From a virus (lineage: Duplodnaviria > Heunggongvirae > Uroviricota > Caudoviricetes), in IMG/VR virus record IMGVR_UViG_2778261454_000002, positions 1 to 19,434 of that record: 19,434 nucleotides of DNA. One strand, written 5' to 3'. Shown here in pieces: positions 2,067 to 18,886 of this stretch; positions within the stretch are counted from its first letter, which is position 1, and every line of letters begins with the position of its first letter. Made by a program: the position numbers and the translations under genes. Below the pieces are notes generated by a model. It was not told the origin of the DNA. It searched no databases and saw only the letters and a list, made by a program, of their open reading frames with translations.

Positions 2067-2087
2067 GTTAAATATTCTCCTGTTTGG

Positions 2088-2342: not shown

Positions 2343-2344
2343 TC

Positions 2345-2812: not shown

Positions 2813-2825
2813 GGGTTAGTCCTCC

Positions 2826-3134
2826 TTAATCCCATTGCAAAACTGATGCGAAATATGCACCGCGACACGGCGAATCACGAGGATGATGCCAGCCTGAATA
2901 GCCATCCTGACCACCTATTGGGCTAACTTTGTACCAGCACTGATAATAGCGGGCGCTACTTGCAAAATCAGCCGCACCATCCGAGTCGATTACATCTTGG
3001 GACACAGAAGCCTGAATTATTTCCGCTTCCGTATAATCGCCGCGCATAACGATGAATCGCGCATCTTCCGAGCAAAGATAATCACATGAACCGTCATATT
3101 TACCTTTGGCGGTAGGTTTGATTAATTTATCCAT
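2826..3134 (-). CDS. Hypothetical phage protein (Cys-rich, 102 aa)
   Basis: ORF with GGGGGAG RBS upstream; start overlaps the stop of the upstream gene; no family recognised. Confidence 0.5.
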   Translation of the reverse strand: MDKLIKPTAKGKYDGSCDYLCSEDARFIVMRGDYTEAEIIQASVSQDVIDSDGAADFASSARYYQCWYKVSPIGGQDGYSGWHHPRDSPCRGAYFASVLQWD

Positions 3135-3135
3135 C

Positions 3136-3483
3136 TCACTCCCCCTTCACGCCAATGCCAGCGGCTACAAGTTCTGCGGTGTTGGCATCCTGCTGTCGGC
3201 AGTCGCATTCAATCTCAATCGGCTCGCCCCATGGCTGCGTGCCGCCACTATCAGTCATTCCTGTGTCGTTGCATTTCGGGCATGGTTTTTCCTCAAGCGC
3301 ATTCAGCAACATACGGATCTCATGTTGTTGTGCTGCTATCGTTGAGTCTTTGGCTTCCAACTCATCCAGCAGCGCCTCCGCCTCGATGTAAATCACCTGC
3401 CGATCGTGGTCTGCCGGGTCGCTATAGTTGTCCTGCATGAACTGGAATTCTTCACGCAGCGCCTGTTTGTTGAGTGCTGTCAT
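3136..3483 (-). CDS. ead/Ea22-like protein with C-terminal CxxC...CxC zinc-binding motif
   Basis: 115 aa; N-terminal coiled-coil-like segment (ALREEFQFMQ..., EAEALLDELEAK) and PCPKCNDTG...ECDC. Start overlaps the upstream stop (ATGA). Confidence 0.55.
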   Translation of the reverse strand: MTALNKQALREEFQFMQDNYSDPADHDRQVIYIEAEALLDELEAKDSTIAAQQHEIRMLLNALEEKPCPKCNDTGMTDSGGTQPWGEPIEIECDCRQQDANTAELVAAGIGVKGE

Positions 3484-3734
3484 TGGGCTGCTCCTTGTCT
3501 GGCTCTGCTCAAGAGCTGGTTAAACATCATGGTTAGGCTGTTACTGCAACCAAACGGCATATCGTTAATGCGGTATGTTGGAATACCCTTGCGAACACCA
3601 GACTTCACGATCCGACCGGTGCCATAGAGCTGAGATAATGCTCCGGCGACCGCTGGGGTCTTTTTGTTCATACCTTTGGCGATTTCACCGCTGGTGGTAT
3701 TCGGATGAGCCTGGAGATATTCAAATACGGTCAT
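3480..3734 (-). CDS. Small winged-helix/HTH-like protein
   Basis: 84 aa; the SGEIAKGMNKKTPAVAGALSQLYGTGRI segment looks HTH-like; ATGA overlap with the upstream small gene. Confidence 0.5.
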   Translation of the reverse strand: MTVFEYLQAHPNTTSGEIAKGMNKKTPAVAGALSQLYGTGRIVKSGVRKGIPTYRINDMPFGCSNSLTMMFNQLLSRARQGAAQ

Positions 3735-3898
3735 GGCGTTTTATCTTTACGTTCCTGTTCCAGTTGCACCAGAGACTCTTTTAATGCTGCGAACGTAGCG
3801 TCCAGTCTGGTGGCGACTTCGCGCATAAGCGGCGCATGCTTTGGTGGCAATTCAGCAACGGAGGCAAACGCCTCCGCTACGAGTTCTTTTACCTTCAT
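3731..3898 (-). CDS. Small hypothetical protein (55 aa)
   Basis: Not in the ORF track (under 60 aa). ATG overlaps the stop of the HD hydrolase gene and its stop overlaps the next ATG (ATGA at both ends), suggesting translational coupling; predicted MKVKELVAEAFASVAELPPKHAPLMREVATRLDATFAALKESLVQLEQERKDKTP. Confidence 0.35.
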   Translation of the reverse strand: MKVKELVAEAFASVAELPPKHAPLMREVATRLDATFAALKESLVQLEQERKDKTP

Positions 3899-4434
3899 GC
3901 GGCGCATTGGCGCTGCTCCATCAACTCGTTAAAGCGATTGATGAACATGCCGTATGACTGGCCAGGACGAACTGGGTTGATAATGAATAAATCCGTTGGG
4001 ACAACTCCCTCGAGGCATGGCCAAATGGAACCTTCGTCAATCTCAAAATCGCGGCGTTCGCTGGCGAGCATCACCAGATCGGCATATTTCACTGTTGGGT
4101 GTTGCTCCGTCGGTAGGCCAAATTTCTGGCGAATAGCAGCGTCTACGCGAGCTTCGATCACCTGGTAATCCGGTAACAGGCGCTTAAGCGGTGAGGGAAT
4201 ATCTTGCAGGTAGGCTTCGGCGGCATCATGAAGCAGTGCTTCTAAGGCAAACTCCTGCGGAACGAGATGGCTGGTTAAAACGCTATGCTGGCCGACGCTG
4301 TAAAACTCAGGAAGATGCCCTGCAAAGCGGCAGATATGAGACAACGCGGTAGCAATATCCTCGATCACGATATCGTCCTGTTGGATATCGAGGTAATTAA
4401 AATGTTTGCCGGATAATGTCTGAATGTAGCTCAT
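3895..4434 (-). CDS. HD-domain phosphohydrolase (YfbR-like 5'-deoxynucleotidase family)
   Basis: Track ORF 3895..4461 begins at GTG; start trimmed to ATG (MSYIQTL...) with GGAG 6 nt upstream. H..HD motif region ALLHDAAEAYLQDIPSPLK resembles YfbR HDASEVLTGDLPTPVK. Confidence 0.7.
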   Translation of the reverse strand: MSYIQTLSGKHFNYLDIQQDDIVIEDIATALSHICRFAGHLPEFYSVGQHSVLTSHLVPQEFALEALLHDAAEAYLQDIPSPLKRLLPDYQVIEARVDAAIRQKFGLPTEQHPTVKYADLVMLASERRDFEIDEGSIWPCLEGVVPTDLFIINPVRPGQSYGMFINRFNELMEQRQCAA

Positions 4435-4542
4435 GGTTTTCTCCATATTGGCGCGCTGCACCGCGCCATTAAATTAATGAATTGCTGAATTTAGCGTGCA
4501 GCAACCCAACCCATGCTTATGGGGGTAATTGTTGCCTGGTGT

Positions 4543-5460
4543 TTATCGCTTGGCTTCGCCGCCGAGAGAGGTTGTTAATCCGTTAATGAGAGAGATAAGC
4601 TCGCCGGTCATCAGAACAAAGTCAGCGTCGAACCTCTGAGCCGCATCCTCACGGTCGATATCGTCGTTTTGTTCTGTAATCTCATTAGAGAACTTAAGGC
4701 GTTTGATGCTGCCGTCATCGCAAAGAACGAACTGAATGCGCTGTTGCCAGTCGATAGACAGCTTTGTAACTACTTTGCCAGCTTCCAGATGCACATGAAT
4801 TTCGTCACTGACCAGAGTCTGTTTTTTAAAGCGTCCAATACCGCCATCTTCAAGAATAGCTTTCAGTTCGGCTTCATCACCCAGGCCAAAGCCAGCAGGC
4901 GCACTACCGGAACGAACCCATTCGGTCATAGTTAGTTCGATCGGCGTTTCCATAGTCAGCGGTACCACCGGGAGAGAACCGAGAGTTTTACGAAGCAGGG
5001 CCAGTGAGTCTTCGGCACGTTTAGCGCTGGCTGCATCAACCATGATCAGACCGTCGGTGACGTTGATCCACAAACTAACAGTCGAGTTTTTGGAGAACGC
5101 CCGAGGAAGCAGGGAGTGCAACACTTCATCACGCAGCGAATCTTTCTCAGTTTTTTTGAGGCGACGCCCCTGATCGGATTCCAGACGCGACACACGCTTG
5201 CGCAGTTCTTCAGCAATGACAGGAGATGGCAGTATTTTTTCTTCCCGGCGAATAACCAACAACACTTGATTATTGACAGTGTGATGCAAGCGATCTGACA
5301 GCTGACCAAGTGGTGATACCCAACCGGTTTTTGCCATATCCTGGCTACCGCATGGAGTGAAGCGAAATAGTTCAAGCTGCTGTTCCAGCTCTTCCTGGTT
5401 GATGGTGAAATCGCGACTAATGCGATACACCAACATATTTTTGAAAAACGGATTGTTCAT
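4543..5460 (-). CDS. rdgC: Recombination-associated protein RdgC homolog
   Basis: 305 aa, alignable along its full length to E. coli RdgC as recalled ([85 protein letters not shown]). GAGGAA RBS upstream. Confidence 0.85.
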
Positions 5461-5772
5461 TCTCGGTTCCTCAACGCCTCTGCACCGGCGCTAAAAAGTT
5501 AGTTTCTCCATACACAACAGAGAAGGGCACCTGCATTGGTCGGCGGCTTGCAGAGACCGCTTTCTTTTTGCCCGGGTGGATTGGGTTATGAGCCCGTCGC
5601 CCGGTGATGCCCTTTTCTGTTGTGCCCTGAAAAAGGCTGGCGGTTACCGGAAATACACGGGAAAACACCGGGCCGCCAGAACAGGGAGTTACTTGTTATT
5701 GCTTTAGCCTGCTTTTAACCACATCAGGCGCGGTGGTATCTTGGTGTTCTCACACAACCAAGAGGGATGTTT

Positions 5773-5970
5773 ATGGGCGCTTTTGATAACCAGGAAATTA
5801 CGTTACCCGCATGCCCTAAGTGCGGCACTAAGACGAAGAAGAAAATCGCTTGGCTCAAGTCGAACAAAAGTTTCACTTGTCGATGTGGAGCTACTATCAA
5901 TGTCAACAGCAGCCAGCTTACTTCCGAAATCAGGAAGGTTGAGGACAAGCTGAAGAAGCTCTTTAAATAG
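5773..5970 (+). CDS. Small zinc-ribbon protein (CPKCG...CRCG), 65 aa
   Basis: Track ORF 5767..5970; ATG at 5773 sits about 7 nt after AGAGGGA; followed by a hairpin with T-run. Overlaps antisense with the 3' half of the minus ORF 5803..6168. Confidence 0.45.
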   Translation: MGAFDNQEITLPACPKCGTKTKKKIAWLKSNKSFTCRCGATINVNSSQLTSEIRKVEDKLKKLFK

Positions 5971-6168
5971 TTTTTTATCGACTGATATTATTTCGTTATC
6001 AGAGGTTGGTTTTTCAGCCTCTGATTTTTTAGTCAGGATCATTTTTTCTACACATGTGACTACGCATTCCGAACAGATGGCAGGTTCGTCCTTACCACCT
6101 TTTGCGACGATCTTTATCGCTCCCAGTTCGGTTGCTCCGCAAAATGAGCATGTGAATAAATGATTCAT
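5803..6168 (-). CDS. ClpX-type C4 zinc-finger small protein; first gene of the leftward operon; 3' extent uncertain
   Basis: ATG at 6168 with GGTGGTAGAGG RBS (track start 6186 is TTG). N-terminal CSFCG...ICSECV resembles the ClpX N-terminal zinc finger. The downstream two-thirds is antisense to the plus ORF and may not be coding. Confidence 0.4.
   Translation of the reverse strand: MNHLFTCSFCGATELGAIKIVAKGGKDEPAICSECVVTCVEKMILTKKSEAEKPTSDNEIISVDKKLFKELLQLVLNLPDFGSKLAAVDIDSSSTSTSETFVRLEPSDFLLRLSAALRACG
5999..6030 (+). terminator. Rho-independent terminator-like hairpin
   Basis: TCAGAGG ... CCTCTGA stem with a 12-nt loop followed by TTTTTT, 29 nt after the stop at 5968-5970. Confidence 0.5.
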
Positions 6169-6279
6169 GTAAACCTCTACCACCAACCTAAGTTTTCTGT
6201 CAGCGAATCATCCGGTTATTCATATGCCACCGGCGGCTACTTCGTGGGCGTCCTGCCTGTTCGTTACTGCAACATCTTT

Positions 6280-6325
6280 AAGTTGTAATCTAGTTGTTGT
6301 TTTGGTTGTTGTCAACAACTTTATG
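6280..6325 (-). promoter_or_regulatory. Candidate pL promoter with OL-like operator palindrome
   Basis: On the minus strand, TTGACA (plus 6310-6315), a 17-nt spacer and TAGATT (plus 6287-6292). The -35 lies inside GTTGTTG-N-CAACAAC (about 6305-6319). Placement right of cI matches lambda pL/OL logic. Confidence 0.4.
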
Positions 6326-6378
6326 TGGTTTTGACGGATGTGAAATGAGGGCAAGGGTTATCAAAAAAGGAGGTTGTA

Positions 6379-6482
6379 TGGACGATGCGCTTTTAATTAC
6401 ACAAGGGACACTTTCCTTCCGTGATTGGAAACTCTCAAATCACGGGAGGAAGATTGAAAAGGCGGGTAATAATGGTAACTAA
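6379..6482 (+). CDS. Possible small peptide (34 aa); low confidence
   Basis: ATG 5 nt after a near-perfect AAGGAGG; contains an 8-bp-stem hairpin (CCGTGATT...AATCACGG, about 6419-6446). Part of the longer TTG-start track ORF 6294..6482. Confidence 0.2.
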
Positions 6483-6509
6483 ATTTCTGAAGGAAGGTTT
6501 TTTGATGCA

Positions 6510-7196
6510 TTACCAAGTGCGCGATGACCAGAATACTCTACCTATAACGTGAATTCTTGAACGCCTATCTTCGAAGGTGAGTATTTCATCTGGATACTCA
6601 TCTTTATTGAAACTTCTTAGAATCAGACCACCGTCAGGTAAATTGATCAATATTTTAACTCTAAGTAATACGCCATCACGTATGGCATAAAGATCCCCAT
6701 CACGAATAGGAACCGTTTGGGAAACATCAACAGCAACAAAATCTCCATTGTTAAGTACAGGTAGTAAACTATTGCCCCAAATTTTTACGATCTTTGCATT
6801 GGAGACACATACACCAGCTTTTCTTAAATCAATCCTTCTTAGCGGGAACCAGTCTACAGTTGATTCAACTATTTCAGCCAAACATCCATTACCCGCTGAT
6901 AACTCGACATCTAGGACTGGAATGTTTGCAAAAATGTCAGGATCTAATGCTGTACTTTCAGCCTCCTTTACAACAAGGTCTGGGAAAGACGCGTTATCCT
7001 CAATGCCCAATTGCAACCACTTTTGAGAAACCCCTAACACTTTAGCAATCTCTTTAATTTTCCGAGGCTGTTGAGTTTCTCCATTCTCGATTTTCGCTAC
7101 GGATTGTTGTGAAAGCCCAATTTTTTCAGCTAGTTGCGCCTGACTCATTCCTGCTTTTTCTCTTTCGCTTTTTAGTCTTTCTGCCAATGTTTTCAC
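6510..7196 (-). CDS. cI: CI-type prophage repressor (N-terminal XRE HTH, C-terminal S24 LexA-like autopeptidase domain)
   Basis: 228 aa; HTH MSQAQLAEKIGLSQQSVAKIENG; C-terminal domain with Ser in IWGNSLLP and Lys in LLRVK. Divergent from cro; GTG start. Confidence 0.9.
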   Translation of the reverse strand: MKTLAERLKSEREKAGMSQAQLAEKIGLSQQSVAKIENGETQQPRKIKEIAKVLGVSQKWLQLGIEDNASFPDLVVKEAESTALDPDIFANIPVLDVELSAGNGCLAEIVESTVDWFPLRRIDLRKAGVCVSNAKIVKIWGNSLLPVLNNGDFVAVDVSQTVPIRDGDLYAIRDGVLLRVKILINLPDGGLILRSFNKDEYPDEILTFEDRRSRIHVIGRVFWSSRTW

Positions 7197-7199
7197 AAC

Positions 7200-7333
7200 A
7201 TATCCCCCTCGTTTTTATTGAGGTTACAACTTTATGTTTTAGCTTTCCAACATCTAAAAGTTGTGATAAAAGTTGTTGTAGTTGTATAATCGAAGTTATC
7301 AACAACTTTACTACTTACAGATAGGAGAAAGCT
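7200..7333. promoter_or_regulatory. OR-like operator cluster with PR (and presumably PRM)
   Basis: Repeated ACAACTTTA / TAAAAGTTGT and GTTGTTG / CAACAAC half-sites at about 7226-7238, 7254-7279 and 7299-7312. Plus-strand TATAAT at about 7285-7290 with TTGTGA about 18 nt upstream; AGGAGA RBS before cro ATG 7334. Confidence 0.6.
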
Positions 7334-7582
7334 ATGACACCTGAGCAATTAGCCTTATCAGAGGCAATCGCTCTGGCTGGTGGTCAATCAGAATTGGCTC
7401 GGAAGCTCACAGCCAGCAGTGGTCGTTTAGTAAAGCAACAACATGTCTGGAACTGGTTGAACAGAGAAAAGCGTCCCCCTGCAAAACTCTCGATATTTAT
7501 TGAAATGACCACTGGCGTATCAAAAGAAAAATTACGTCCAGATATTTTTCAAAAGATTAAAGACTTATCAGATGGAAAGTAA
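7334..7582 (+). CDS. cro: Cro-like HTH regulator (YdaS-like family)
   Basis: 82 aa; first gene rightward of OR, divergent from cI; HTH-like GGQSELARKL; YdaS-family resemblance is from memory. Confidence 0.7.
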   Translation: MTPEQLALSEAIALAGGQSELARKLTASSGRLVKQQHVWNWLNREKRPPAKLSIFIEMTTGVSKEKLRPDIFQKIKDLSDGK

Positions 7583-8156
7583 CCACAGTTTTAAGGAGAT
7601 AGCCGTGGGTAAGCATCACTGGAAAGTAGAAAAACAGCCTGAGTGGTACGTGAAAGCTGTCAGAAAAACTATCGCGGCGTTGCCGGGTGGTTACGCTGAA
7701 GCTGCTGACTGGCTGGATGTAACAGAGAACGCATTATTTAACCGCCTTCGTGCCGATGGCGATCAGATTTTCCCGCTGGGATGGGCAATGGTTTTGCAAC
7801 GTGCTGGTGGAACTCACTTCATTGCTGACGCTGTGGCGCAGTCTGCAAATGGCGTCTTTGTGTCTCTTCCTGACGTCGAGGATGTGGACAACGCCGATAT
7901 TAACAAGCGCCTGCTGGAAGTCATTGAACAGATTGGCAGTTATTCCAGACAGATTCGTTCGGCAATCGAAGACGGTGTGGTGGAACCGCATGAGAAGACA
8001 GCAATTAACGACGAGCTGTATCTCTCAATTTCGAAGCTGCAGGAGCATGCAGCACTGGTCTACAAAATCTTTTGCATTTCAGAAAGTAATGACGCCCGCG
8101 AGTGTGCAGCTCCGGGCGCCGTGGCGTGTCGTGACTGTGGAGAAACTAACGCATGA
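7572..8156 (+). CDS. CII/YdaT-like phage regulatory protein
   Basis: 194 aa directly after cro with an 11-nt overlap; position and size fit CII-type regulators (CP76/YdaT-like) of lambdoid prophages. Family assignment is from memory and uncertain. Confidence 0.55.
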
Positions 8157-8491
8157 ACAGTTTAACAACACACTACCGTCGCTCGCAACTGATTGCGCTT
8201 CCTGTACCGGGTGGAAAAGCGAAGGTGGAGTATTGCTATGCAGTTAATGTACCAGGTGACAGGGAAATTGTAACCCACAGCTTTGCTGAGTGGGCTGTGG
8301 GTGATTTCAACCGGCAGAAGGAGACAGTCCTTTGCGACAAGTTAACCGCTGGTTCAAAGATCACTACGGAGTGCCCGTCAGAGTCATTCGTTGGGAACCG
8401 GAAACACAACGGGTTATCTACCTCCGCGAAGGCTATGAGTATGAGTGCTTCAGCCCGCTCGAACAGTTTCGTCGTAAATTCAGGGAAATAG
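8153..8491 (+). CDS. Hypothetical protein; reading frame probably disrupted in its 3' half
   Basis: ATGA overlap with the upstream stop. N-terminal 60 aa look protein-like, but the C-terminal third is Ser-rich low complexity, while an overlapping Met-less frame (8305..8511) encodes a protein-like sequence. Confidence 0.4.
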
Positions 8492-8500
8492 AGGTCGGTC

Positions 8501-9136
8501 ATGAGCACTAAATTAACCGGCTATGTATGGGATGGTTGCGCAGCGTCAGGCATGAAATTATCCAGCGTGGCAATTATGGCCCGCCTGGCTGATTTCAGTA
8601 ATGACGAAGGTGTGTGCTGGCCATCAATTGAAACCATTGCCCGCCAGATTGGCGCGGGGATGAGTACCGTCAGAACGGCTATCGCACGGCTGGAAGCAGA
8701 AGGCTGGTTAACGCGTAAGGCGCGTCGCCAGGGTATCTGCATCATCGTCTGCCTGTCATGGGCTGTTAATCATTACCGTGATAACGCCATCGCCTATAAA
8801 GAACAGCGCGATAAAGCCACGTCTATCATCGCTGATATGCAGAAGCGTCAACGTGATGTAGCAGAACTTGACGCCAGATACACAAAGGAGCTTGCTGATG
8901 CTAATGCGACTATCGAAAGTCTCCGTGATGATGTTTCTGCTGGGCGTAAGCGCCTGCAAGTCGCCGCCACCTGTGCAAAGTCAACGACCGGAGCCAGCAG
9001 CATGGGCGATGGAGAAAGCCCAGGACTTACAGCAGATGCTGAACTCAATTATTACCGTCTCCGAAGTGGAATCGACAAGATAACCGCGCAGGTTAACTAC
9101 CTGCAGGAATACATCAGGACGCAATGCCTGAAATAA
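8501..9136 (+). CDS. Chimeric ORF: replication-initiator-like HTH N-terminal domain (about 78 aa) fused in frame to the C-terminal part of i-spanin Rz
   Basis: N-terminal [34 protein letters not shown] is an HTH typical of phage O-like initiators. From [19 protein letters not shown]... onward it is colinear with lambda Rz ([20 protein letters not shown]...[19 protein letters not shown]...LRDDVAAGRRRL...). Junction near nt 8735. Confidence 0.7.
8904..9083 (+). CDS. rz1: o-spanin Rz1 lipoprotein, embedded in the +1 frame of Rz
   Basis: Inside track ORF 8868..9083; [18 protein letters not shown] has a lipobox (LLGVSAC) followed by a Pro-rich segment ([16 protein letters not shown]), as in lambda Rz1. 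Start codon chosen by me. Confidence 0.7.
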
Positions 9137-9159
9137 TTTTTTTGCAAATCACAAAGTCA

Positions 9160-9235
9160 ATTTAATGAGCCTCGCGATGCGGGGCTTTTTGCAATAAATG
9201 CGTACCGCAACGCATGTTTTTTACACCGAACCTGC
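9160..9235 (+). terminator. Two tandem hairpin/T-run elements downstream of Rz
   Basis: AGCCTCGC-GAT-GCGGGGCT followed by TTTTT, and ATGCG-TACCGCAA-CGCAT followed by GTTTTTT. Coordinates approximate. Confidence 0.4.
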
Positions 9236-9337
9236 CCCTTTGGAATGGGCCTTTGAGGATACCAGTTAGTGCTGGCGAGCCTCGGTGGGCTGGTTTCCTG
9301 TGCGGCAAAGGTTCATTTCAAAGAGTAGGTACACGCT

Positions 9338-9835
9338 ATGAAATCATTAACCCTCTTCAATCAACCAATTCGTATCGGTGAAGATGGCATGATCTGCCTC
9401 ACTGATATGTGGAAAGCCAGTGGTAAAAGTGAATCTGAATCGCCTTACCACTACCTGCGAAACAAGCAGACCAAAGAGTTCTTAGCCGAGCTGGAGAAAA
9501 ACCACGAATCTGTGGTTTTTACTGAGCGCGGTGTACACGGTGGAACATATGGCGGGAAGTTTGTTGCTTACGATTATGCGGCTTGGTTAAACCCCGGGTT
9601 CAAGTACGCGGCCTATAAAGTCCTCGATGACTACTTCACAGGAGAACTTCAGCATCGCAACAGCTTAAGTGCGCAGCTCAACATGAAATGTCATGAGTTT
9701 GACCAGAAGAAAGACATGGCGAGTTTCTGCGGACAAGGGCTGGCGGCATGGCGCTATACGAAGCCAGTGTTGGTCGCTGAGATTAACTCCCTGGCTAACC
9801 AGCTGCAGATTACGATCCCCGGGCTTCCGGGATGA
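9338..9835 (+). CDS. KilA-N domain protein
   Basis: 165 aa; N-terminal pattern (FNQPIRIGEDGMICLTDMWKASGK...) matches the KilA-N DNA-binding domain as recalled. Confidence 0.65.
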   Translation: MKSLTLFNQPIRIGEDGMICLTDMWKASGKSESESPYHYLRNKQTKEFLAELEKNHESVVFTERGVHGGTYGGKFVAYDYAAWLNPGFKYAAYKVLDDYFTGELQHRNSLSAQLNMKCHEFDQKKDMASFCGQGLAAWRYTKPVLVAEINSLANQLQITIPGLPG

Positions 9836-10089
9836 GTGATCGTGTCATTGAATGCGCCTCCAGAGCGGGGCGCGACTTCTCAGAGTTCATGAAAGGCGAG
9901 AAGGGCATGATGGAAGCATTGGCCTCGGTGGATGAGTTTGGCGAGCAGCTGCGCCTCAACGGCTGTGTCAATCATCACTTTGTTAGCTACATGATGCGGA
10001 ACTCGATCATGCAGGCATTCATGGACATGGCAAAAGCCGAGAGGAAAGAAGAGCGCCGGCGTAAGCGAGCGGAAGCAAAAGCGAAGTAG
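9832..10089 (+). CDS. Hypothetical protein (85 aa, basic C-terminus)
   Basis: ATGA overlap with the KilA-N stop; C-terminal KAERKEERRRKRAEAKAK; followed by a hairpin (AAGCCCA...TGGGCTT). Confidence 0.5.
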   Translation: MSDRVIECASRAGRDFSEFMKGEKGMMEALASVDEFGEQLRLNGCVNHHFVSYMMRNSIMQAFMDMAKAERKEERRRKRAEAKAK

Positions 10090-10183
10090 CCATTCCAAAG
10101 CCCATCTACGGGTGGGCTTGATAATGGTATGTATTGTCTTCGGGAAGGCTTTGTAGATGTTAAGCGATTATTAAGAGGCAATC

Positions 10184-10342
10184 ATGACTTTAGCTGAACG
10201 TGTAAAGAGAATTGAGAGCGAATTAAAAGACATTAAATCGCAACTCAATTCTGGTACCGATTCTAGGAAAACAGCAAAAGCAATGCCCTTATCCAGTCTT
10301 GCAAAAGAGGGAGGTATCCCTGGGGGGTTAGTTAAAAAATGT
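10184..10342 (+). CDS. Small hypothetical protein (52 aa)
   Basis: Not in the track; AAGAGG RBS 6 nt upstream of ATG; predicted MTLAERVKRIESELKDIKSQLNSGTDSRKTAKAMPLSSLAKEGGIPGGLVKKC; its 3' end overlaps the convergent protease gene. Confidence 0.3.
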
Positions 10343-10792
10343 TAACTCAAATACTTGATTGGAAAAATCCATCGTAAGGGCGCCCATTTTAATTAGTTGC
10401 ATTCCGAAAACGACTTGGAATTTTCTCCCGTTACTTACCAATGGCACTGAAGTCAATTCTGTTGAAAAAACTCTTTCGTCCTCAGTGAACGATATTACCG
10501 CATGCCGAACTGTAGTTTCTATTGTTGAGGTGGCTCCGCTCACAGTTGTTTTTTCCGCGATTGGGAGTTTTAAATCGTCAGCAAAGTCTGAATCCACATA
10601 GCAAAGATCTGCTCCGGTATCTATAAGTGCGTAGGCACCAGCCTTCAATCCATTTGGTTTATAAACGTTTATATCTTTTGAGCTACTTGGCCATACTGTC
10701 AATGGAACTACGGGAATTGCATGCTCCGTGGGGGTATCTGATACCGATCCATCAATAGGGGAAATAAACTTGATTTTTACTTTGGTGATCAT
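10328..10792 (-). CDS. Retropepsin-like (clan AA) aspartic protease
   Basis: 154 aa; catalytic-type motif ALIDTGADLCYVD (D-T-G-A) and C-terminal GMQLIKMGALTMDF resembling the retropepsin dimerisation strand; AAGGA RBS. AT-rich, opposite orientation to its neighbours, with its own upstream intergenic region. Confidence 0.65.
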   Translation of the reverse strand: MITKVKIKFISPIDGSVSDTPTEHAIPVVPLTVWPSSSKDINVYKPNGLKAGAYALIDTGADLCYVDSDFADDLKLPIAEKTTVSGATSTIETTVRHAVISFTEDERVFSTELTSVPLVSNGRKFQVVFGMQLIKMGALTMDFSNQVFELTFFN

Positions 10793-11051
10793 CCTTTTTC
10801 CTTCGAAGAGTTATTCAGCCATTCCTCCTCTTTGCGTGAATCAGTGTCCCACCACTGACGGGCTGAATGCTTACCTTACCCGGGGTTAAAACGAAGTAAT
10901 ACCCTGATATTCAGACAGTAACCGCATCGCGCGGCATTTATGCGCATCGCACGCGCACATCAAAGAAAGTCTTTCAGCTGTGAGCCTGGGCAAACCGTTA
11001 ACTTTCGGCGGCTTTGCCGTGCGACAGGCTCACGCCTAAAAGGAAATACCC

Positions 11052-11216
11052 ATGAAATATTTATCGCTACAACAGGCGATGCTCGGCATGCGAGTAATCA
11101 TGACCGATGATGGCCTCATTTTGAAAAGCCCGGCAGGTAGTGCGCATTACGATCTGAAAGGTCGACGCCATACAGTTTGGGGGATGCTTCTTTCTTCCCG
11201 GAGCATATGCGTGTGA
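11052..11216 (+). CDS. Small hypothetical protein (54 aa)
   Basis: Not in the track; ATG about 8 nt after AAGGA; overlaps the next ORF in a different frame. Confidence 0.3.
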   Translation: MKYLSLQQAMLGMRVIMTDDGLILKSPAGSAHYDLKGRRHTVWGMLLSSRSICV

Positions 11217-11725
11217 AGGATAAGCGTAAGCCTAATCTCAGCCGTATTGTTTTTGAGAAAGACTGCACGACTATTTATGGTGCTGATGGAAAACCACAAG
11301 CACGCATAGGTAACTGGGATAAACCGGGAGAACCAAAAGGCTGGCGAATCCAAAAAGACGGCGCGTATATAACGTCTTATGAATTCAATCCTAAGAATAA
11401 TTTTAATGAGAACGGCCAGCAGTATGCAGCTGGAATGGTCGTTGGTATTGATGTGCAAAAGGGCAATGCAGCTGTTAATGCCAATCAATTTAAGTCTCCG
11501 ATAGAAGCACCAGATCCAATAACCGAGAGCATTTTAGAAAATGCACTTTCAACCCATGCTGCTAATAAAAACATCCAGGCCCTCATCAACCAGCAAGCAA
11601 AGGAGATCGTGGAAATGAAACAGGGCTTTGCCGAGTCTGTAAAAAAGGAGCTGGCTAAGCATCTTCGCCATGGTGGATTGATGTGGTCTGCATTAGTCAA
11701 GCGAAGTAGACGTTTAGACGTCTAA
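11207..11725 (+). CDS. Hypothetical protein (172 aa from ATG; track ORF begins at TTG 11177)
   Basis: Long ORF with no family recognised; the last gene before cos, where lambda carries bor and accessory ORFs. Confidence 0.5.
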   Translation: MRVKDKRKPNLSRIVFEKDCTTIYGADGKPQARIGNWDKPGEPKGWRIQKDGAYITSYEFNPKNNFNENGQQYAAGMVVGIDVQKGNAAVNANQFKSPIEAPDPITESILENALSTHAANKNIQALINQQAKEIVEMKQGFAESVKKELAKHLRHGGLMWSALVKRSRRLDV

Positions 11726-11789
11726 ATAACAACAGGCACTCAAACACAATTGATAACCATTATCGTTTGGGTCCTTTCCGGCAATCCGC

Positions 11790-11815
11790 CCTGTTACGGG
11801 GCGGCGTCCGCGCAG
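11790..11815. other. cos site: cosN nicking region with predicted 12-nt cohesive end GGGCGGCGTCCG (about 11799-11810), cosB downstream
   Basis: GTTACGGGGCGGCGTCCGCGCAGATTCTCGCTATATATGAAAATTTT is nearly identical to lambda cosN (GTTACGGGGCGGCGACCTCGCGGGTTTTCGCTATTTATGAAAATTTT), about 80 nt upstream of Nu1. Confidence 0.7.
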
Positions 11816-11886
11816 ATTCTCGCTATATATGAAAATTTTGGACATGAGGTTGTTGTTTAATCATTGCTGAAAACGGGTGAGGGAAT

Positions 11887-12393
11887 ATGGCCGTGCTATT
11901 GAATAAATCTGATATGGCTTCCTCGCTGGGAATATCCGTCCAGGCCTTTGATAAATGGGGTGTCCAGCCAGTAGAAAAGAGAGGGCGAGAAGTCTTCTTT
12001 GACGTTCGTTCAGTCGTTGATAACCGCATCGAACACCAGAGTCGAAAACTACAACCATCGCCGGGAGAAGACGATGATAGTGTCAATATTGATTATGAAC
12101 GTTGGCGTTTAACTCGTGCTAATGCGGATGCGGCTGAGCTGGCCAATGAGAAAAAGCGTCGCGAGGTCGTAGAGACTGCGTTTTGTACCTTCGTGTTATC
12201 CAGAATTGCCGCTGAAATATCCAGTATTCTGGATGGCATACCCCTTTCGATGCAGCGCCGGTTCCCTGAGCTGGAAAATCGGCATATCGAGTTCCTGAAA
12301 GGGGACGTAATAAAGGCAATGAATAAGGCTGCGGCGCTGGATGAACGGATTCCGGGGTTGTTGAATGATTATATCGACCAGTCAGGTAGCTAA
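11887..12393 (+). CDS. Nu1: Terminase small subunit Nu1
   Basis: 168 aa; C-terminal two-thirds almost identical to lambda Nu1 (VVETAFCTFVLSRIA.EI.SILDG.PLS.QRRFPELENRH..FLK...IKAMNKAAALDE.IPGLL); GAGGGA RBS. Confidence 0.9.
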   Translation: MAVLLNKSDMASSLGISVQAFDKWGVQPVEKRGREVFFDVRSVVDNRIEHQSRKLQPSPGEDDDSVNIDYERWRLTRANADAAELANEKKRREVVETAFCTFVLSRIAAEISSILDGIPLSMQRRFPELENRHIEFLKGDVIKAMNKAAALDERIPGLLNDYIDQSGS

Positions 12394-14287
12394 TCTGCGA
12401 ACAGCGGTAAAAGCTGGTCTGAAATCACTATACCGCCCGGAACCCATGACAGCTGTCGAATGGGCCGATGCGCATTATTACCTTCCGAAGGAATCCGCTT
12501 ATCAGGAAGGGCGCTGGGAAACATTGCCATTTCAGCGCGCGATCATGAATGCGATGGGCAGCGACTATATTCGCATTGTTAACGTAATTAAGTCGGCGCG
12601 AGTAGGCTATTCGAAAATGCTACTCGGCGTCATTGCTTATTTCATCGAGCACAAACAACGTAATGAGTTGCTGTGGCTGCCGACCGACGGCGACGCAGAT
12701 AATTTCATGAAGTCACACGTTGAACCTACGATCCGTGATGTTCCCTCGCTGTTATCACTTGCTCCCTGGTATGGGAAAAAGCACAGGGATAACACGCTGT
12801 CGATGAAGCGATTTACCAATGGCCGTGGCTTCTGGTGCCTGGGTGGTAAATCGGCTAAGAACTATCGTGAAAAATCAGTCGATGTCGTTGGATACGATGA
12901 GCTGGCTGCGTTTGACGCTGATATTGAGAAAGAGGGTTCGCCGACCTTCCTGGGGGATAAGCGTATCGAGGGTTCTGTTTGGCCCAAATCCATACGCGGT
13001 TCGACACCGAAATTGCGTGGAACGTGTCAGATTGAGCGGGCAGCAAAAGAGTCCGGACATTTTATGCGATTTCATGTCGCATGTCCGCACTGTGGTGAAG
13101 AGCAGTATCTTAAATTTGGTGACCGGGATACGCCTTTCGGCTTCAAATGGGAGCCTGAGCAGGCCGAAACGGTCTACTACCTCTGCGAGCATAATGCTTG
13201 TGTCATTAAGCAACATGAACTGGACTTTTCCAACGCTCGTTATATCTGCGAATTGACCGGAATATGGACGCGCGACGGGCTTCGCTGGTTCTCATCGTCT
13301 AATGCTGAAATTGATCCACCTGAAAGCGTAACTTTCCACATCTGGACAGCTTATAGCCCGTTTACCACTTGGGTACAGATAGTTAAAGACTGGTTCAAAA
13401 CGAAAGGCGACACGGGTAAACGCAAGACATTTGTGAACACCACCCTGGGCGAAACGTGGGAAGCGAAAATCGGTGATCGCCCCGATGCAGACGTTTTAGC
13501 AGAGCGTAAAGAGCACTTTGATGCTGCAGTACCTGAGCGAGTGGCGTATCTGACAGCGGGGATTGACTCCCAGCTCGACCGTTACGAAATGCGTGTGTGG
13601 GGATGGGGGCCGGGTGAGGAAAGCTGGCTTATCGACAGGCAAATCATCATGGGTCGCCATGATGATGAGTCAACGCTTGCCCGTGTGGATGAGGCGATTA
13701 ACAAGACATATAAACGCCGGAACGGCGTAGAAATGTTTATATCCCGTATCTGCTGGGATATCGGTGGTATTGACCCCACTATCGTTTACAACCGCTCGAA
13801 AAAACACGGTCTGTTTCGTGTGATCCCGATAAAGGGTGCGTCGGTTTATGGAAAGCCGGTGGCGAACATGCCCCGCAAACGCAACAAAAACGGTGTTTAT
13901 CTGACAGAAGTGGGTACTGATACCGCGAAAGAGCAGATTTATAACCGCTTCACGCTGACCGTTGAAGGTGATGAGCCTCTGGCCGGTGCCGTTCACTTCC
14001 CCAATAACCCCGATATTTATGATCTTTCAGAGGCGCAGCAGCTGACCGCCGAAGAACTGGTCGAAAAGTGGGTTGATGGTAAGAGAAAAATCATATGGGA
14101 CAGCAAAAAAAGGCGAAATGAGGCTCTCGACTGCTTTGTTTACGCACTGGCGGCGCTTCGTATCAGCATATCCCGCTGGCAGCTTAACCTTGATTCACTT
14201 CTTGCCAGCCTGCTGGAGGAAGAAGGCACCCGTAACAATAACAAGACCCTGGCGGATTACGCGCGGGCATTGTCTGGAGAGGAATAA
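12365..14287 (+). CDS. A: Terminase large subunit A
   Basis: 640 aa versus 641 in lambda; high identity along the full length (for example [40 protein letters not shown]); overlaps Nu1 as in lambda. Confidence 0.95.
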
Positions 14288-14493
14288 TGGCAACACAGAC
14301 TGAACTGGATGCCGCGCGCGCTGCGTTACATGACCTGATGATGGGGAAACGAGTGGCGACGGTACAGAAAGATGGCCGAAGAGTGGAATTTACAGCTACC
14401 TCAGTTACCGATCTCAAAAAGTATATTGCTGACCTTGAATCTCAGGTTGGTACCACATCACGACGCCAGGGGCCTGCAAGGTTTTACGTATGA
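14287..14493 (+). CDS. W: Head-tail joining protein W
   Basis: 68 aa, near-identical to lambda gpW ([41 protein letters not shown]). Confidence 0.9.
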
Positions 14494-16082
14494 AAATACC
14501 ATCTTTAGTGGGTCCTGACGGGAAAACATCCCTTCGGGAATACGCGGGGTATCATGGCGGCGGCGGAGGGTTTGGTGGTCAGTTGCGGGGCTGGAATCCA
14601 CCAAGCGAAAGTGCTGATGCGGCTCTTCTGCCTAACTTCTCGCGCGGAAATGCCCGTGCTGACGATCTGGTCAGAAATAATGGCTATGCGGCAAACGCCG
14701 TGCAGCTCCACCAGGACCACATCGTCGGGTCATTTTTCAGACTCAGCTATCGACCGAGCTGGCGCTATCTTGGCATCAATGAGGAGGATTCACGCGCATT
14801 TTCGCGGGATGTAGAAGCCGCCTGGAACGAGTATGCCGAGGATGATTTTTGCGGGATTGATGCTGAGCGCAAGCGAACCTTTACGATGATGATCCGTGAA
14901 GGTGTGGCCATGCATGCGTTTAACGGTGAATTATGCATGCAGGCGACCTGGGACAGCGATTCAACGCGTCTTTTCCGTACTCAGTTCAAAATGGTCAGTC
15001 CGAAGCGCGTCAGTAATCCAAACAATATCGGTGATACCCGGAACTGTCGCGCTGGGGTAAAAATCAATAACAGTGGTGCTGCGCTGGGATATTACGTCAG
15101 CGACGACGGATACCCCGGCTGGATGTCACAGAACTGGACCTATATTCCGCGCGAGCTTCCTGGTGGCCGCCCCTCGTTTATCCATGTATTCGAACCGATG
15201 GAGGATGGACAGACCCGTGGGGCTAATGCGTTTTACAGCGTGATGGAGCAGATGAAAATGCTCGATACCCTGCAAAACACCCAGCTCCAGAGCGCTATCG
15301 TAAAGGCCATGTATGCAGCCACCATCGAGAGTGAACTGGATACCCAATCGGCGATGGATTTTATCCTCGGTGCGGATAATAAAGAGCAGCAGAGCAAACT
15401 GACAGGCTGGCTCGGCGAAATGGCAGCCTATTACTCCGCTGCGCCGGTTCGCCTGGGCGGGGCAAGGGTCCCACACCTGTTGCCGGGGGATTCTCTTAAC
15501 CTTCAGTCGGCGCAGGATACCGATAACGGCTATTCAACGTTCGAACAATCCCTGCTGCGTTATATTGCTGCAGGGCTGGGTGTGTCGTATGAGCAGCTTT
15601 CACGAAACTATTCGCAGATGAGCTACTCGACCGCACGCGCAAGTGCTAACGAGTCCTGGGTGTACTTTATGGGGCGTCGCAAGTTTGTTGCGTCCCGACA
15701 GGCCTGCCAGATGTTTCTTTGCTGGCTGGAAGAAGCGATTGCCAGAAGGGTGGTCACGCTTCCTTCGAAAGCCCGTTTCAGTTTCCAGGAGGCTCGAACA
15801 GCATGGGGGAACGCCAGCTGGATTGGCTCTGGCCGAATGGCTATTGACGGGCTGAAAGAGGTGCAGGAAGCCGTCATGCTTATTGAGGCTGGTCTCAGCA
15901 CGTATGAGAAAGAGTGCGCCAAACGCGGTGATGATTATCAGGAGATTTTTGCCCAGCAGGTCCGGGAAACAATGGAGCGTCGTGCTGCGGGTCTGAAACC
16001 ACCGGCATGGGCCGCTGCCGCTTTTGAGGCTGGACTGAAAAAATCAAACGAGGAGGAGCAAGATGGCGCACGAGCTGCGTAA
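14490..16082 (+). CDS. B: Portal protein B
   Basis: 530 aa versus 533 in lambda; very high identity ([54 protein letters not shown]). Confidence 0.95.
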
Positions 16083-17406
16083 TCTTCCGCATATCGCCAG
16101 TATGGCCTTTAATGAGCCGCTGATGCTTGAACCCGCCTACGCGCGGGTTTTCTTTTGTGCCTTAGCTGGTCAGCTGGGCATCACCCGGCTGACAGATACC
16201 GTCTCTGGCATCACGCTTGACGCCGGACAAATAGCCGAACCGCTGGCGCTGTTTGGTGAAGATGATGACATGGATACCCGACCATCGCGAAGCTATCAGG
16301 TGGCAAATGGCATCGCGGTCTTGCCGGTTTCCGGCACTCTGGTGAGTAAAACCCGTGCGCTGCAGCCTTATTCCGGGATGACGGGTTACAACGGGATCAT
16401 CGCTCGCCTGCAGCAGGCCATCAGTGACCCCGGCGTCGACGGCATTCTACTGGACATGGATACGCCGGGTGGCATGGTGTCCGGGGCGTTTGACTGCGCC
16501 GACATTATTGCCCGTATGCGCGATATCAAACCCATCTGGGCGCTGGCCAATGACATGAACTGCAGTGCAGGTCAGCTTATAGCCAGTTCGGCATCGCGAC
16601 GGCTGGTCACACAAACGGCCAGAACCGGCTCCATTGGGGTCATGATGGCGCACAGTAACTATGGCGCTGCGCTCAAAACTAACGGCGTTGAGGTCACGCT
16701 GATTTACAGCGGCGATCGCAAGGTCGACGGCAACCCTTACGAAAAGCTTCCGAAAGATGTGCGTGCTGATTTCCAGACGCGTATCGATGCCACTCGTCAG
16801 ATGTTTGCCGAAAAGGTTTCCGCTTATACCGGCATGTCTGTTCAGGACGTGCTGGACACCGAAGCGGCAGTATTCTCCGGCCAGGAATCTTTGGATAACG
16901 GGCTGGCGGATGAACTTGTTAACAATACCGATGCGCTCGGCGTGATGCGCGAAGCACTCGACAGACGCAAAAAAACAACCCTTGGAGGAACTATGCCATC
17001 ACCTTCTGCATCAGCTGTGACCACTAAGCCAGTTGACCAGGCAGCAACTCAGACAACTGCATCAGCTGAACAGGCCACTACCGTTGACACGACAATTGCT
17101 TCCGTAGCAGCCCCTGTAGATGTCAGTGCGCAGGTTACTGCAGCAGTAGCTGCAGAGAATAGTCGCATCATGGGCATCCTAAACTGCGACGAGGCTAAAG
17201 GGCGTGAGTCACAGGCGCGAGCACTGGCCGAAACGCCGGGTATGACGGTAGAGAGCGCACAGCGCATTCTGGCTGCTGCACCGCAAAGTGCCCAGACGCG
17301 TACCGATACGGCGCTGGATCGTTTGATGGAAACAGCACCCGGTGCACTCCCAGCAGGTAGCGCATCTTCTGATGCCGCTGACGATTTGTTAAACACCCCC
17401 GTTTAA
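16063..17406 (+). CDS. C: Head maturation protease C (S49/ClpP-like), presumably with in-frame internal scaffold Nu3
   Basis: 447 aa; colinear with lambda C ([37 protein letters not shown]...). The Ala/Thr/Ser-rich linker and conserved C-terminus match the lambda C/Nu3 arrangement. Confidence 0.9.
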   Translation: MAHELRNLPHIASMAFNEPLMLEPAYARVFFCALAGQLGITRLTDTVSGITLDAGQIAEPLALFGEDDDMDTRPSRSYQVANGIAVLPVSGTLVSKTRALQPYSGMTGYNGIIARLQQAISDPGVDGILLDMDTPGGMVSGAFDCADIIARMRDIKPIWALANDMNCSAGQLIASSASRRLVTQTARTGSIGVMMAHSNYGAALKTNGVEVTLIYSGDRKVDGNPYEKLPKDVRADFQTRIDATRQMFAEKVSAYTGMSVQDVLDTEAAVFSGQESLDNGLADELVNNTDALGVMREALDRRKKTTLGGTMPSPSASAVTTKPVDQAATQTTASAEQATTVDTTIASVAAPVDVSAQVTAAVAAENSRIMGILNCDEAKGRESQARALAETPGMTVESAQRILAAAPQSAQTRTDTALDRLMETAPGALPAGSASSDAADDLLNTPV

Positions 17407-17415
17407 GAGGCTATC

Positions 17416-17748
17416 ATGGCAATTACTGAAGTTTTCACACATAACCAGCCGCTCGGTAACAGCGACCCGGCGCACACTGCGTATGGTCCTGGCGAACTGA
17501 CAGCTTCCACTCCAGCCATGACGCCGCTCATGCTGGATGCCACTTCTGGCAAGCTGGCCGTCTGGGATGGTGCTCATGCTGGCGCGGCAATGGGCATCCT
17601 GGCTGTAACCGCAGACCAGAACAGCGCGGAACTGGCATTTTACAAATCTGGCTCTTTCCGTATTGAAGATGTCCTCTGGCCATCTGCCGTCACCGACGAC
17701 AACATTAAACGTAACGCGTTCGCCGGTACTGCAATCAGCATCGTTTAA
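17416..17748 (+). CDS. D: Head decoration protein D
   Basis: 110 aa, same length as lambda gpD, high identity ([27 protein letters not shown]....KL..WDG...GAA.GILAV.ADQ). Confidence 0.9.
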
Positions 17749-17777
17749 TCCGCATTTCTACAACCATCATCATTCAT

Positions 17778-17803
17778 AAAAGCCGCCTGCGCGGCTTTTT
17801 TTA
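17778..17803 (+). terminator. Hairpin with T-run between D and E (possible attenuator or mRNA stabiliser)
   Basis: AGCCGC-CTGC-GCGGCT followed by TTTTTTT, 13 nt before the E start codon. Confidence 0.4.
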
Positions 17804-17815
17804 CGGGAAATATCT

Positions 17816-18841
17816 ATGTCCGTTTACACCACTGCCCAGCTGCTGGCGGTCAATGAGAAGAAATTCAAATTCGATCCGCTTTTCCTGCGTATCTTTTTCC
17901 GCGAAACCTATCCCTTCAGTACAGAGAAGGTTTACCTGTCGCAAATTCCTGGCCTGGTCAATATGGCGCTTTACGTCTCGCCGATTGTCTCCGGCAAAGT
18001 GATCCGCTCCCGTGGCGGCAGCACGTCTGAATTCACGCCAGGTTATGTGAAGCCGAAACACGAAGTTAACCCACTGATGACTCTCCGCCGCCTGCCGGAT
18101 GAGGATCCGCAGAATCTCGCTGACCCGGTCTATCGCCGTCGCCGCATCATCCTTCAGAACATGAAGGATGAAGAGCTGGCGATTGCTCAGGTCGAAGAGA
18201 AACAGGCTGTTTCGGCGGTGCTCAGCGGTAAATACACCATGACCGGGGAAGCGTTCGAGCCTGTTGAAGTCGATATGGGTCGCAGCGCTGGTAACAACAT
18301 TGTCCAGGCAGGTGCGGCTGCATGGTCAACCCGCGACAAAGAAACGTATGACCCGACCGATGACATTGAAGCGTACGCGCTTAATGCCAGCGGTGTGATC
18401 AACATCATTGTGTTCGATCCGAAGGGCTGGGCGCTGTTCCGTTCCTTCAAGTCTGTTGAGAAGAAACTGGACACCCGTCGGGGTTCTAACTCAGAGCTGG
18501 AAACTGCCGTGAAAGACCTGGGTATGGCTGTTTCATACAAGGGTATGTATGGCGATGTGGCCATCGTGGTGTACTCCGGCCAGTACGTCGAAAATGATGT
18601 CAAAAAGAACTATCTGCCGGATCTGACGATGGTTCTGGGTAATACACAGGCCCGTGGCCTCCGTACCTATGGCTGCATTCTTGATGCTGATGCCCAGCGC
18701 GAAGGTATCAATGCCTCGACACGCTACCCGAAAAACTGGGTGCAGTCGGGGGATCCGGCGCGCGAATTCACCATGATTCAGTCAGCTCCGCTGATGCTGC
18801 TGCCAGACCCTGACGCATTCGTCTCCGTCAAACTGGCATAA
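17816..18841 (+). CDS. E: Major capsid protein E
   Basis: 341 aa, same length as lambda gpE, and near-identical (YTTAQLLA.NE.KFKFDPLFLR.FFRE.YPF.TEKVYLSQIPGLVNMALYVSPIVSG.VIRSRGGSTSEFTPGYVKPKHEVNP). Confidence 0.95.
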   Translation: MSVYTTAQLLAVNEKKFKFDPLFLRIFFRETYPFSTEKVYLSQIPGLVNMALYVSPIVSGKVIRSRGGSTSEFTPGYVKPKHEVNPLMTLRRLPDEDPQNLADPVYRRRRIILQNMKDEELAIAQVEEKQAVSAVLSGKYTMTGEAFEPVEVDMGRSAGNNIVQAGAAAWSTRDKETYDPTDDIEAYALNASGVINIIVFDPKGWALFRSFKSVEKKLDTRRGSNSELETAVKDLGMAVSYKGMYGDVAIVVYSGQYVENDVKKNYLPDLTMVLGNTQARGLRTYGCILDADAQREGINASTRYPKNWVQSGDPAREFTMIQSAPLMLLPDPDAFVSVKLA

Positions 18842-18886
18842 CTTCCCCCAGTGGCCCTGTCGGGCCACCTTTCTGGAGTATTTCCC

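Follow-up and report, generated by a model that had tools for sequence, protein, structure and literature searches.

The stretch of DNA analysed here (19,434 nucleotides, positions 1 to 19,434 of IMG/VR record IMGVR_UViG_2778261454_000002; in the following, the window) corresponds to a defective, lambda-like prophage from the Enterobacter cloacae complex. A minus-strand gene at 10328..10792 encodes a protein of 154 amino acids (aa) which, judged by profile, invariant motifs and predicted fold, is a clan-AA retropepsin-like aspartic protease. Sequence comparison further identifies this gene as the independently organised cargo of a mobile cassette, i.e., as an HK97-type 'reverse moron', a type of element initially recognised in phages HK97 and HK022, and the protease is a further example of these two known kinds. 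As a whole, the observations are probably best explained by a reverse-moron protease cargo which would be expressed from the prophage and be accessory to the lysogen, with phage exclusion as its likeliest role.

The retropepsin-like protease and its family

The open reading frame (ORF) at 10328..10792 (minus strand, ATG start) encodes the 154-aa product with the ALIDTGADL signature at residues 54-62, in agreement with the preliminary description of this DNA. The protein contains (i) the catalytic motif D57-T58-G59-A60, (ii) a putative flap (G85-A-T-S-T89), and (iii) a hydrophobic-hydrophobic-Gly motif (V127-F128-G129), followed to residue 142 by the remainder of the segment GMQLIKMGALTMDF (residues 129-142). 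The Pfam model Asp_protease_2 (PF13650) matches residues 54-131 with 26.7 bits and hence above its curated gathering score of 24.3 bits, and PF13650 is also the precomputed Pfam assignment of a 97 %-identical relative (P0001). Further models stayed below their thresholds: RVP (PF00077; MEROPS A2) scored 12.3 bits (threshold 20.7, E = 0.21), the gag-asp_proteas and pepsin (Asp) models ranked next after Asp_protease_2, both below their own cut-offs, and the NCBIfam model TIGR03698 (clan_AA_DTGF) reached 21 bits (threshold 57.35).

The profile of the protease family matches the protease of human T-lymphotropic virus 1 (HTLV-1) with E = 8e-7, aligning the P-V-V motif of the family with the mature N-terminus of the viral enzyme (PVIPLD) and "ilGm..L" with IIGRDAL; it also matches the protease domains of Ddi1. 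The AlphaFold2 monomer, modelled from a 58-sequence alignment, has a retropepsin fold (predicted local distance difference test score, pLDDT, 93.8; predicted template modelling score, pTM, 0.88). Foldseek comparison with viral models agrees with this fold and revealed further stand-alone retropepsin-like proteins in uncultured phages. The preliminary description had proposed a retropepsin-like protease and had made this assignment depend on a clan-AA profile match and a predicted retropepsin fold, both of which were found.

The same description had read the C-terminal segment as the retropepsin dimerisation strand. This part of the proposal has to be corrected, since GMQL aligns with the hydrophobic-hydrophobic-Gly motif and the subsequent helix of retropepsins (IIGRD of HTLV-1 protease). 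In the model, a helix at residues 130-133 follows the hydrophobic-hydrophobic-Gly motif, corresponding to the GRD/GRN region of retropepsins, and two terminal strands are formed by residues 136-141 and 146-151 (model numbering, i.e., protein numbering minus 1). According to the model, it is these terminal strands following GMQL which would correspond to the retropepsin interface.

On the basis of sequence, the protease belongs to a separate and small family: a HMMER profile search of 1.84 billion cluster representatives retrieved 204 relatives (E <= 0.001), mostly of about 150 aa. Conservation was assessed in sets of 41 and 58 relatives from this search, sharing 17-97 % identity with the window protein. 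Residues D57, T58, G59 and G129 do not vary in either set; A60 does not vary among the 58 sequences either and is almost invariant among the 41. Conservation of P26, A54, L55, L138 and D141 is complete or almost complete. Since the Pfam match, the HMMER family, the invariant residues, the profile comparison and the predicted fold represent several independent results, the DTG motif is no chance occurrence.

Enterobacter copies of the gene differ at 28 synonymous versus 15 non-synonymous sites, with 31 of these 43 at the third codon position, demonstrating clear purifying selection. The exact protein sequence is recorded on 487 contigs (Enterobacter hormaechei and E. cloacae complex). Decay of the surrounding prophage (O-Rz fusion and a frameshifted neighbour, see below) might suggest that the protease, too, is a non-catalytic or decaying remnant, its fold being kept as a binding module or its gene heading for loss. 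However, purifying selection, the large number of identical copies, and the invariance of DTGA and G129 down to relatives with 17-25 % identity render this extremely improbable.

The enzyme class as such is already annotated and not new, as the exact protein bears the public names "aspartyl protease family protein", "Peptidase A2 domain-containing protein" and "retropepsin-like aspartic protease" (NCBI). Literature searches on retropepsin or aspartic proteases in prophages, morons and anti-phage defence did not retrieve a functional study of this protease.

Several features distinguish the protease from known retropepsins. An N-terminal extension of about 25 residues, conserved in the family (I6, F8, P26), is absent from retroviral proteases (MEROPS A2), i.e., those of HTLV-1, equine infectious anaemia virus (EIAV), Rous sarcoma virus (RSV) and human immunodeficiency virus 1 (HIV-1). 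Also in contrast to the retroviral enzymes, the prophage protease is encoded by a stand-alone gene rather than within a polyprotein and fails the RVP threshold. Compared to Ddi1, it lacks a ubiquitin-like domain. Characterised bacterial retropepsin-like proteases are few, namely RimB and ApRick, the latter known from its crystal structure, and to our knowledge no phage accessory cassette carries a characterised member. ApRick/APRc of Rickettsia (PDB 5c9b) is a structural match to the protease but membrane-anchored, and PA0462/DUF785 is periplasmic according to the title of its PDB entry (9g59). By contrast, sequence analysis of the prophage protease revealed neither a signal peptide or signal-like N-terminus nor a membrane segment; the single-domain product is probably soluble and cytoplasmic, since it is devoid of a hydrophobic segment (maximal 19-residue hydropathy 1.08). 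RimB trims polyglutamate tails from ribosomal protein S6 (PMC11957791) and acts on polyglutamylated S6 in the context of a rimABK operon, whereas the protease studied here is prophage-borne and without partner genes.

In the contexts examined, the protease family is prophage-borne. Relatives are encoded on 85 stretches in IMG/VR, tblastn found no copies of the protease in 50,697 sequenced phage genomes, and no PHROG family is matched. Of two scans with one genome per species, the first was without match and the other yielded only three full-length relatives, from a Rhizobiales genome, Pseudomonas folii and Lutimaribacter. The protease cassette is also present on two Enterobacter 'plasmids' in PLSDB (NZ_CP091500.1 and NZ_CP083846.1), both about 50 kb in size and non-mobilisable; they may represent circular phage genomes or phage-plasmids.

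A mobile cassette with a shared leader

The window comprises a repressor/Cro/CII region from about 6500, followed by terS at 11887, terL and the genes for portal, prohead protease, decoration and capsid proteins. From 7334 to the window end, the protease gene is the only convincing gene on the minus strand. It has a G+C content of 40.2 % (35.7 % at third codon positions) versus 53.2 % for the late genes (53.6 % at third codon positions of terL). Both its singular orientation and its AT-richness had been recognised in the preliminary description, as had an independent organisation as cargo gene, which is borne out by (i) the occurrence of the same unit at two late-region sites, (ii) a different cassette within the same flanks, and (iii) a leader also preceding annotated reverse morons. 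The upstream intergenic region, by comparison, proved only partly as described: 259 bp indeed lie between the start codon of the protease gene and that of the next gene on the plus strand (11052), but the region is not dedicated to this gene, its leader being shared by at least 25 cargo families.

The minimal mobile unit (751 bp; 10175..10923, minus strand) consists of the protease gene with 131 bp of upstream and about 150 bp of downstream sequence. Six other Enterobacter prophages (L016, L017, L019, L021, L022, L027) match the window at 10175-10923 only (97 % identity). In these, the unit is flanked by two minor tail genes, a gpM-like one that lies downstream of the tape measure gene and a gpL-like one (neighbours identified in L016), so that the two late-region sites are Rz-terS, as in the window, and gpM-gpL. 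In Enterobacter prophages with different head modules, about 960 bp (10087-11048) between lysis and packaging genes are kept at 94-98 % identity. Phages mEp213 and mEp043 as well as several Escherichia coli genomes (among which strain 730V1 was the one analysed in detail) share the same flanks (10085-10127 and 10808-11048), here enclosing a different gene pair, i.e., gp71 (52 aa, forward) and gp72 (86 aa, reverse).

According to the 'moron' concept (Juhala et al. 2000, as summarised in PMC3594210), morons are independent transcription units with their own promoter and terminator and a differing G+C content, which are expressed from repressed prophages (PMC3594210). The protease cassette is inserted between genes that are adjacent in related phages, holds exchangeable cargo, and differs in base composition from the surrounding genes (40.2 versus 53.2 % G+C).

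The shared 'reverse moron' leader (10793..10940, minus strand) is composed of a putative promoter and a structured 5' untranslated region (UTR), and ends at the Shine-Dalgarno sequence AAGGA (10803-10799). In the same prophages, this leader of about 150 nt recurs a few kb away with 82-90 % identity, preceding unrelated reverse ORFs of 94, 85, 73 and 87 aa; it is also found at 72-74 % identity in front of protease homologues that are only 36-39 % identical in protein sequence. Other copies are present at L001 6434-6564, L003 6492-6590, L015 3798-3931 and L020 2550-2694 as well as in L242-L244. Based on blastn, the leader is 74-84 % identical over about 145 nt to sequences of HK97, HK022 and ES18. 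The cargo following it is gp23 in HK97 ("reverse moron product"), gp23 in HK022 ("srb protein; moron gene product") and gp25 in ES18 ("possible moron"). Literature searches on reverse morons and on srb of HK022 did not retrieve anything relevant.

The 20-nt core of the leader (GCCCGYCNGTGGTGGGACAC) occurs in at least 120 copies in IMG/VR, the number of copies and likewise that of cargo clusters being lower bounds. In 118 instances, an ORF with Shine-Dalgarno sequence begins 51-65 nt past the core, nearly always after 51-57 nt. These ORFs form at least 25 unrelated clusters, mostly of 65-95 aa, with the protease contributing 14 of the 118 among the matches listed. Among complete E. coli genomes the leader is rare (53 of 5,426), and the region 9800-11400 yielded no Rfam family match. 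The leader apparently is a widespread, structured and undescribed element carrying many different prophage cargos, which may represent a cis-regulatory RNA or a portable expression module. With its copy number, the diversity of linked families, hairpins supported by covariation (see below) and no Rfam entry, it offers a handle to catalogue swappable prophage cargos.

The protease cassette has the leader, the reverse orientation in the late region, a convergent small forward ORF and a G+C content unlike the surroundings in common with the morons of HK97 (gp23), HK022 (gp23) and ES18 (gp25). It differs from them with respect to cargo, a 154-aa enzyme versus 73-95-aa proteins of unassigned function, and in the window also with respect to site (Rz-terS versus tail module). 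Among the cargo families scanned, a minority of the 25, the protease is the only leader-linked cargo with an identified enzyme family.

A survey of gene neighbourhoods in other genomes, as advised in the preliminary description, covered 54 non-redundant viral loci, in most of which the protease gene is oriented opposite to its neighbours. The median share of neighbouring coding sequence on the other strand is 81 %, which is too low a value, since spurious long ORFs (e.g., the L076/L077 pair) account for some of the same-strand "neighbours". Neighbours of protease relatives include J-like, tape measure, tail assembly, minor tail, spanin, Rha/antirepressor and terminase genes. Distant homologues (25-40 % identity) are found in other proteobacterial prophages, where they occupy tail or lysis regions and mostly have the opposite orientation. 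A Pseudomonas homologue (34 % identity), again encoded on the opposite strand, is flanked by a NinG-region gene and the holin gene of another lambdoid prophage. Same-strand upstream ORFs were considered as partners of the protease and dismissed: ten of them are without Pfam match, and they are probably spurious, since gene calling at a near-identical locus assigned this stretch to the other strand.

The many homologues inside tail modules, beside tape measure, gpM/gpL-like and J-like genes, could indicate that the protease serves the phage lytic cycle, either by processing a tail component (e.g., the tape measure protein) or by degrading host proteins at takeover. At most loci, however, the strand is opposite to that of the late operon, and the same cassette is also found outside the tail module, between Rz and terS. 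Moreover, the sporadic occurrence (none in 50,697 sequenced phages, no PHROG family) implies that the protease cannot have a core assembly function, its leader is common to many unrelated small cargos, and its gene is intact in a prophage unable to make virions. A role in tail assembly is therefore unlikely in view of orientation, sporadic distribution and non-tail sites, and any function in lytic growth appears quite improbable.

Proposed accessory function

In the 211-aa product of the ORF at 8501..9136 (plus strand), residues 1-101 match an O-like replication initiator and residues 79-211 an Rz spanin; the 3' end of the ORF is 97 % identical to the end of mEp213 Rz. Judged from this arrangement, the remainder of O was evidently lost through an in-frame deletion, along with P, the nin region, Q, holin and endolysin. 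Since the O-Rz fusion implies loss of replication, Q and lysis genes, the prophage is defective. The protease gene is intact despite this loss and despite the frameshift in a neighbouring gene, which speaks for a benefit to the lysogen.

In the proposed mechanism, a small, horizontally mobile expression cassette sits within the late region, oriented against the late operon, and supplies its own leader, in which a putative promoter is followed by two 5' UTR hairpins and a ribosome-binding site. Leader and orientation suggest that transcription of the protease gene most likely does not depend on the late operon and hence takes place in the repressed prophage; during lytic growth, late transcription would run antisense through the protease gene. 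By analogy with all retropepsins, the protein would act as a homodimer cutting specific protein substrates. The accessory function would benefit the lysogen, most plausibly through exclusion of superinfecting phages via cleavage of a phage or host protein.

Phage exclusion is favoured because of the precedent of Lit and because many prophage accessory genes have defence roles. Lit of the defective prophage e14 is a zinc metalloprotease which is triggered by the Gol peptide of phage T4 and cleaves EF-Tu. Like the protease described here, it is a single protease gene product kept by a defective prophage, and it provides a precedent for exclusion by proteolysis of a host translation factor; the two proteins differ in that they share no relationship in sequence or fold. 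The first moron studied, gp15 of HK97, is a superinfection-exclusion protein (PMC3594210).

Several points weigh against prophage expression and a role in exclusion. A scan for consensus promoters and terminators found neither a sigma-70 site nor a canonical terminator at the cassette, and the -35 element upstream of the -10-like hexamer TAAGGT (TAnnnT; 10873..10878, minus strand) is weak, with a spacer of 15 nt; the leader promoter is accordingly a candidate only. Expression of the cassette in the lysogen is inferred from analogy with morons. The sole sequence link of the protease to defence is a weak similarity to the PADLOC profile PDC-M08B (E = 0.02), while PDC-M08A was not found among 219 neighbouring proteins. 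Recurrent defence neighbours were likewise not found with PADLOC, whose recurrent matches near the family are JAB domains only, attributed to gpK-like tail proteins. Finally, the gene may have persisted in this defective prophage only because decay set in recently.

Within the family, 11 of the 58 relatives match the PDC-M08B profile at E <= 0.01 (best 1.4e-5). Together with the similarity of the window protein, this suggests that PDC-M08B probably also represents a retropepsin-like domain. PDC-M08 is named as a multi-gene candidate, whereas the protease family is without a recurrent A component; a literature search did not retrieve a paper on PDC-M08. A more far-reaching proposal would have the protease act as a single-gene anti-phage effector (abortive infection or superinfection exclusion by aspartic proteolysis) and as one of the at least 25 cargos which HK97-like prophages would exchange behind a shared, structured RNA leader. 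In this specific form the proposal is unlikely to hold; if true, the leader would constitute an expression platform for accessory or defence genes that had so far escaped notice.

Host modulation in the manner of the regulatory retropepsin RimB is the main alternative to phage exclusion. More generally, the protease could be a lysogenic-conversion factor acting on host physiology or on a eukaryotic host, i.e., a regulatory protease or an exported effector. Such a factor would be in accord with the same cassette evidence as phage exclusion, and those bacterial retropepsin-like enzymes that have been characterised act in regulation or maturation (RimB, and ApRick as a structural match). However, signal peptide and membrane anchor are absent from the protein, and an association with secretion genes was not found in the surveyed neighbourhoods; lysogenic conversion of this kind seems unlikely. 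As the protease is under selection and expressible as a single 17-kDa protein, its substrate as well as a phage-resistance or host phenotype are directly testable.

Leader structure, 3' region and neighbouring genes

The outer edge of the leader is marked by a terminator-like hairpin for the late strand (10922..10940, plus strand), formed by CCGCATCGCGCGGC and followed by ATTTA. Aligned leaders display compensatory stem variants of this hairpin (GCCGC/GCGGC, GCCACC/GGTGGC), and the equivalent forward-strand hairpin is annotated as 'putative terminator' in the records of HK97 and ES18; in the window, terminator function is only presumptive, because the T-run is short. The conserved box TACTGTCTGAATATCAGG (CTG-N9-CAG; 10903..10920, minus strand) lies at the 5' edge of the mobile unit and is possibly an operator or promoter element. 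Its reading as a LexA box was rejected on account of the spacing (N9 versus canonical N10). Among 70 unique leaders, the TAnnnT hexamer is conserved with frequencies of 0.89 for the first T, 0.99 for A and 0.90 for the final T.

Two hairpins are predicted in the 5' UTR. Hairpin 1 (10839..10860, minus strand; stem ~UCAGUG / CACUGA, loop GUGGGA) has 97 % of cells paired and one pair with compensatory changes, and its outer pairs are weakened in the window copy; its variation is limited because the leader copies were gathered with a motif lying inside this hairpin. Hairpin 2 (10806..10829, minus strand; AGGAGG ... CUCUU), located just upstream of the Shine-Dalgarno sequence, has the conserved loop AUGGCUGA and shows two-sided changes preserving pairing at five of its six pairs (44 distinct leaders). 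For the whole structure (hairpins 1 and 2 plus a long-range helix), 94 % of cells are paired versus 26-46 % in slid controls, and the observed values are reached by 0 of 500 shuffles on four of five measures and by 1 of 500 on the fifth, with the structure being derived from the same sequences that were used for testing. A mini-ORF in the leader (ATG GCT GAA TAA) was dropped from consideration, as it is not conserved among other leaders.

A forward ORF of 53 aa (10184..10345, plus strand), annotated as hypothetical, is convergent to the protease gene and shares 18 bp with the 3' end of the latter. The ORF contains a long stem-loop or inverted repeat (10208..10252, minus strand), and a short hairpin (10308-10321, minus strand) is situated just after the protease stop codon; both are candidates for a transcript end or stabiliser. 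The minus-strand fold of 10190-10335 has a predicted energy of -38.8 kcal/mol (z = -3.6), not attained by any of 200 shuffles. Owing to the absence of a proper U-run, a terminator function of the 3' stem-loop is putative.

One may speculate that protease and 53-aa ORF form a toxin-antitoxin or abortive-infection pair, the protease being the toxin and the 53-aa product or an antisense transcript the antidote. The ORF is open in 19 of 19 Enterobacter variants, possesses a good Shine-Dalgarno sequence and, in Enterobacter, invariably accompanies the protease, at the tail site as well; moreover, the convergent overlapping layout recurs in HK97 (gp22/gp23), HK022, ES18 and mEp213. However, its substitutions (5 synonymous versus 16 non-synonymous sites; 9/4/7 at the three codon positions) lack a coding signature and third-position bias, tblastn found no match to it in 50,697 phage genomes, and it belongs to no PHROG family. 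The convergent forward ORFs of HK97, HK022, ES18 and mEp213 are mutually unrelated (gp71 of mEp213 has a similar MTLxER start), and a counterpart was not seen beside the Pseudomonas homologue, the only distant locus searched at this ORF size. The strong hairpin of the region also fits a 3' UTR, and a two-component toxin system has little probability. The region 10184-10345 may rather be the 3' UTR or terminator region of the protease gene, its coding status being doubtful.

A further GC-rich hairpin with UACG tetraloop, AAGCCCAUC-UACG-GGUGGGCUU, is located at 10098..10119 (plus strand; z = -3.5) within the left flank (10085-10127) that is common to mEp213 and E. coli 730V1 with their different cassette. 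It probably is a terminator and likely also serves as a recombination anchor for cassette exchange.

The plus-strand gene at 11052-11725 is frameshifted near 11150-11180 relative to intact relatives, with residues 1-44 encoded by 11052-11183 and residues 35-232 by 11147-11695; this reflects either a pseudogene or a sequencing error. Elsewhere, the gene is named 'Fur-regulated protein' or 'phage tail tip fiber protein'. An ORF at 9338-9835 (plus strand), situated between Rz remnant and cassette, encodes a Rha-like regulator/antirepressor matching only positions 3-174 of a PHROG profile of 273 positions, and may be truncated.

Further cargos linked to the leader comprise proteins of 210 aa and 169 aa, several families of 65-95 aa, some of which look related to gp23 of HK022, and an 87-aa protein (MSFLHKRMHLNQGD..., encoded in L020 from 2707 onward and in L209), which may resemble DUF1883.

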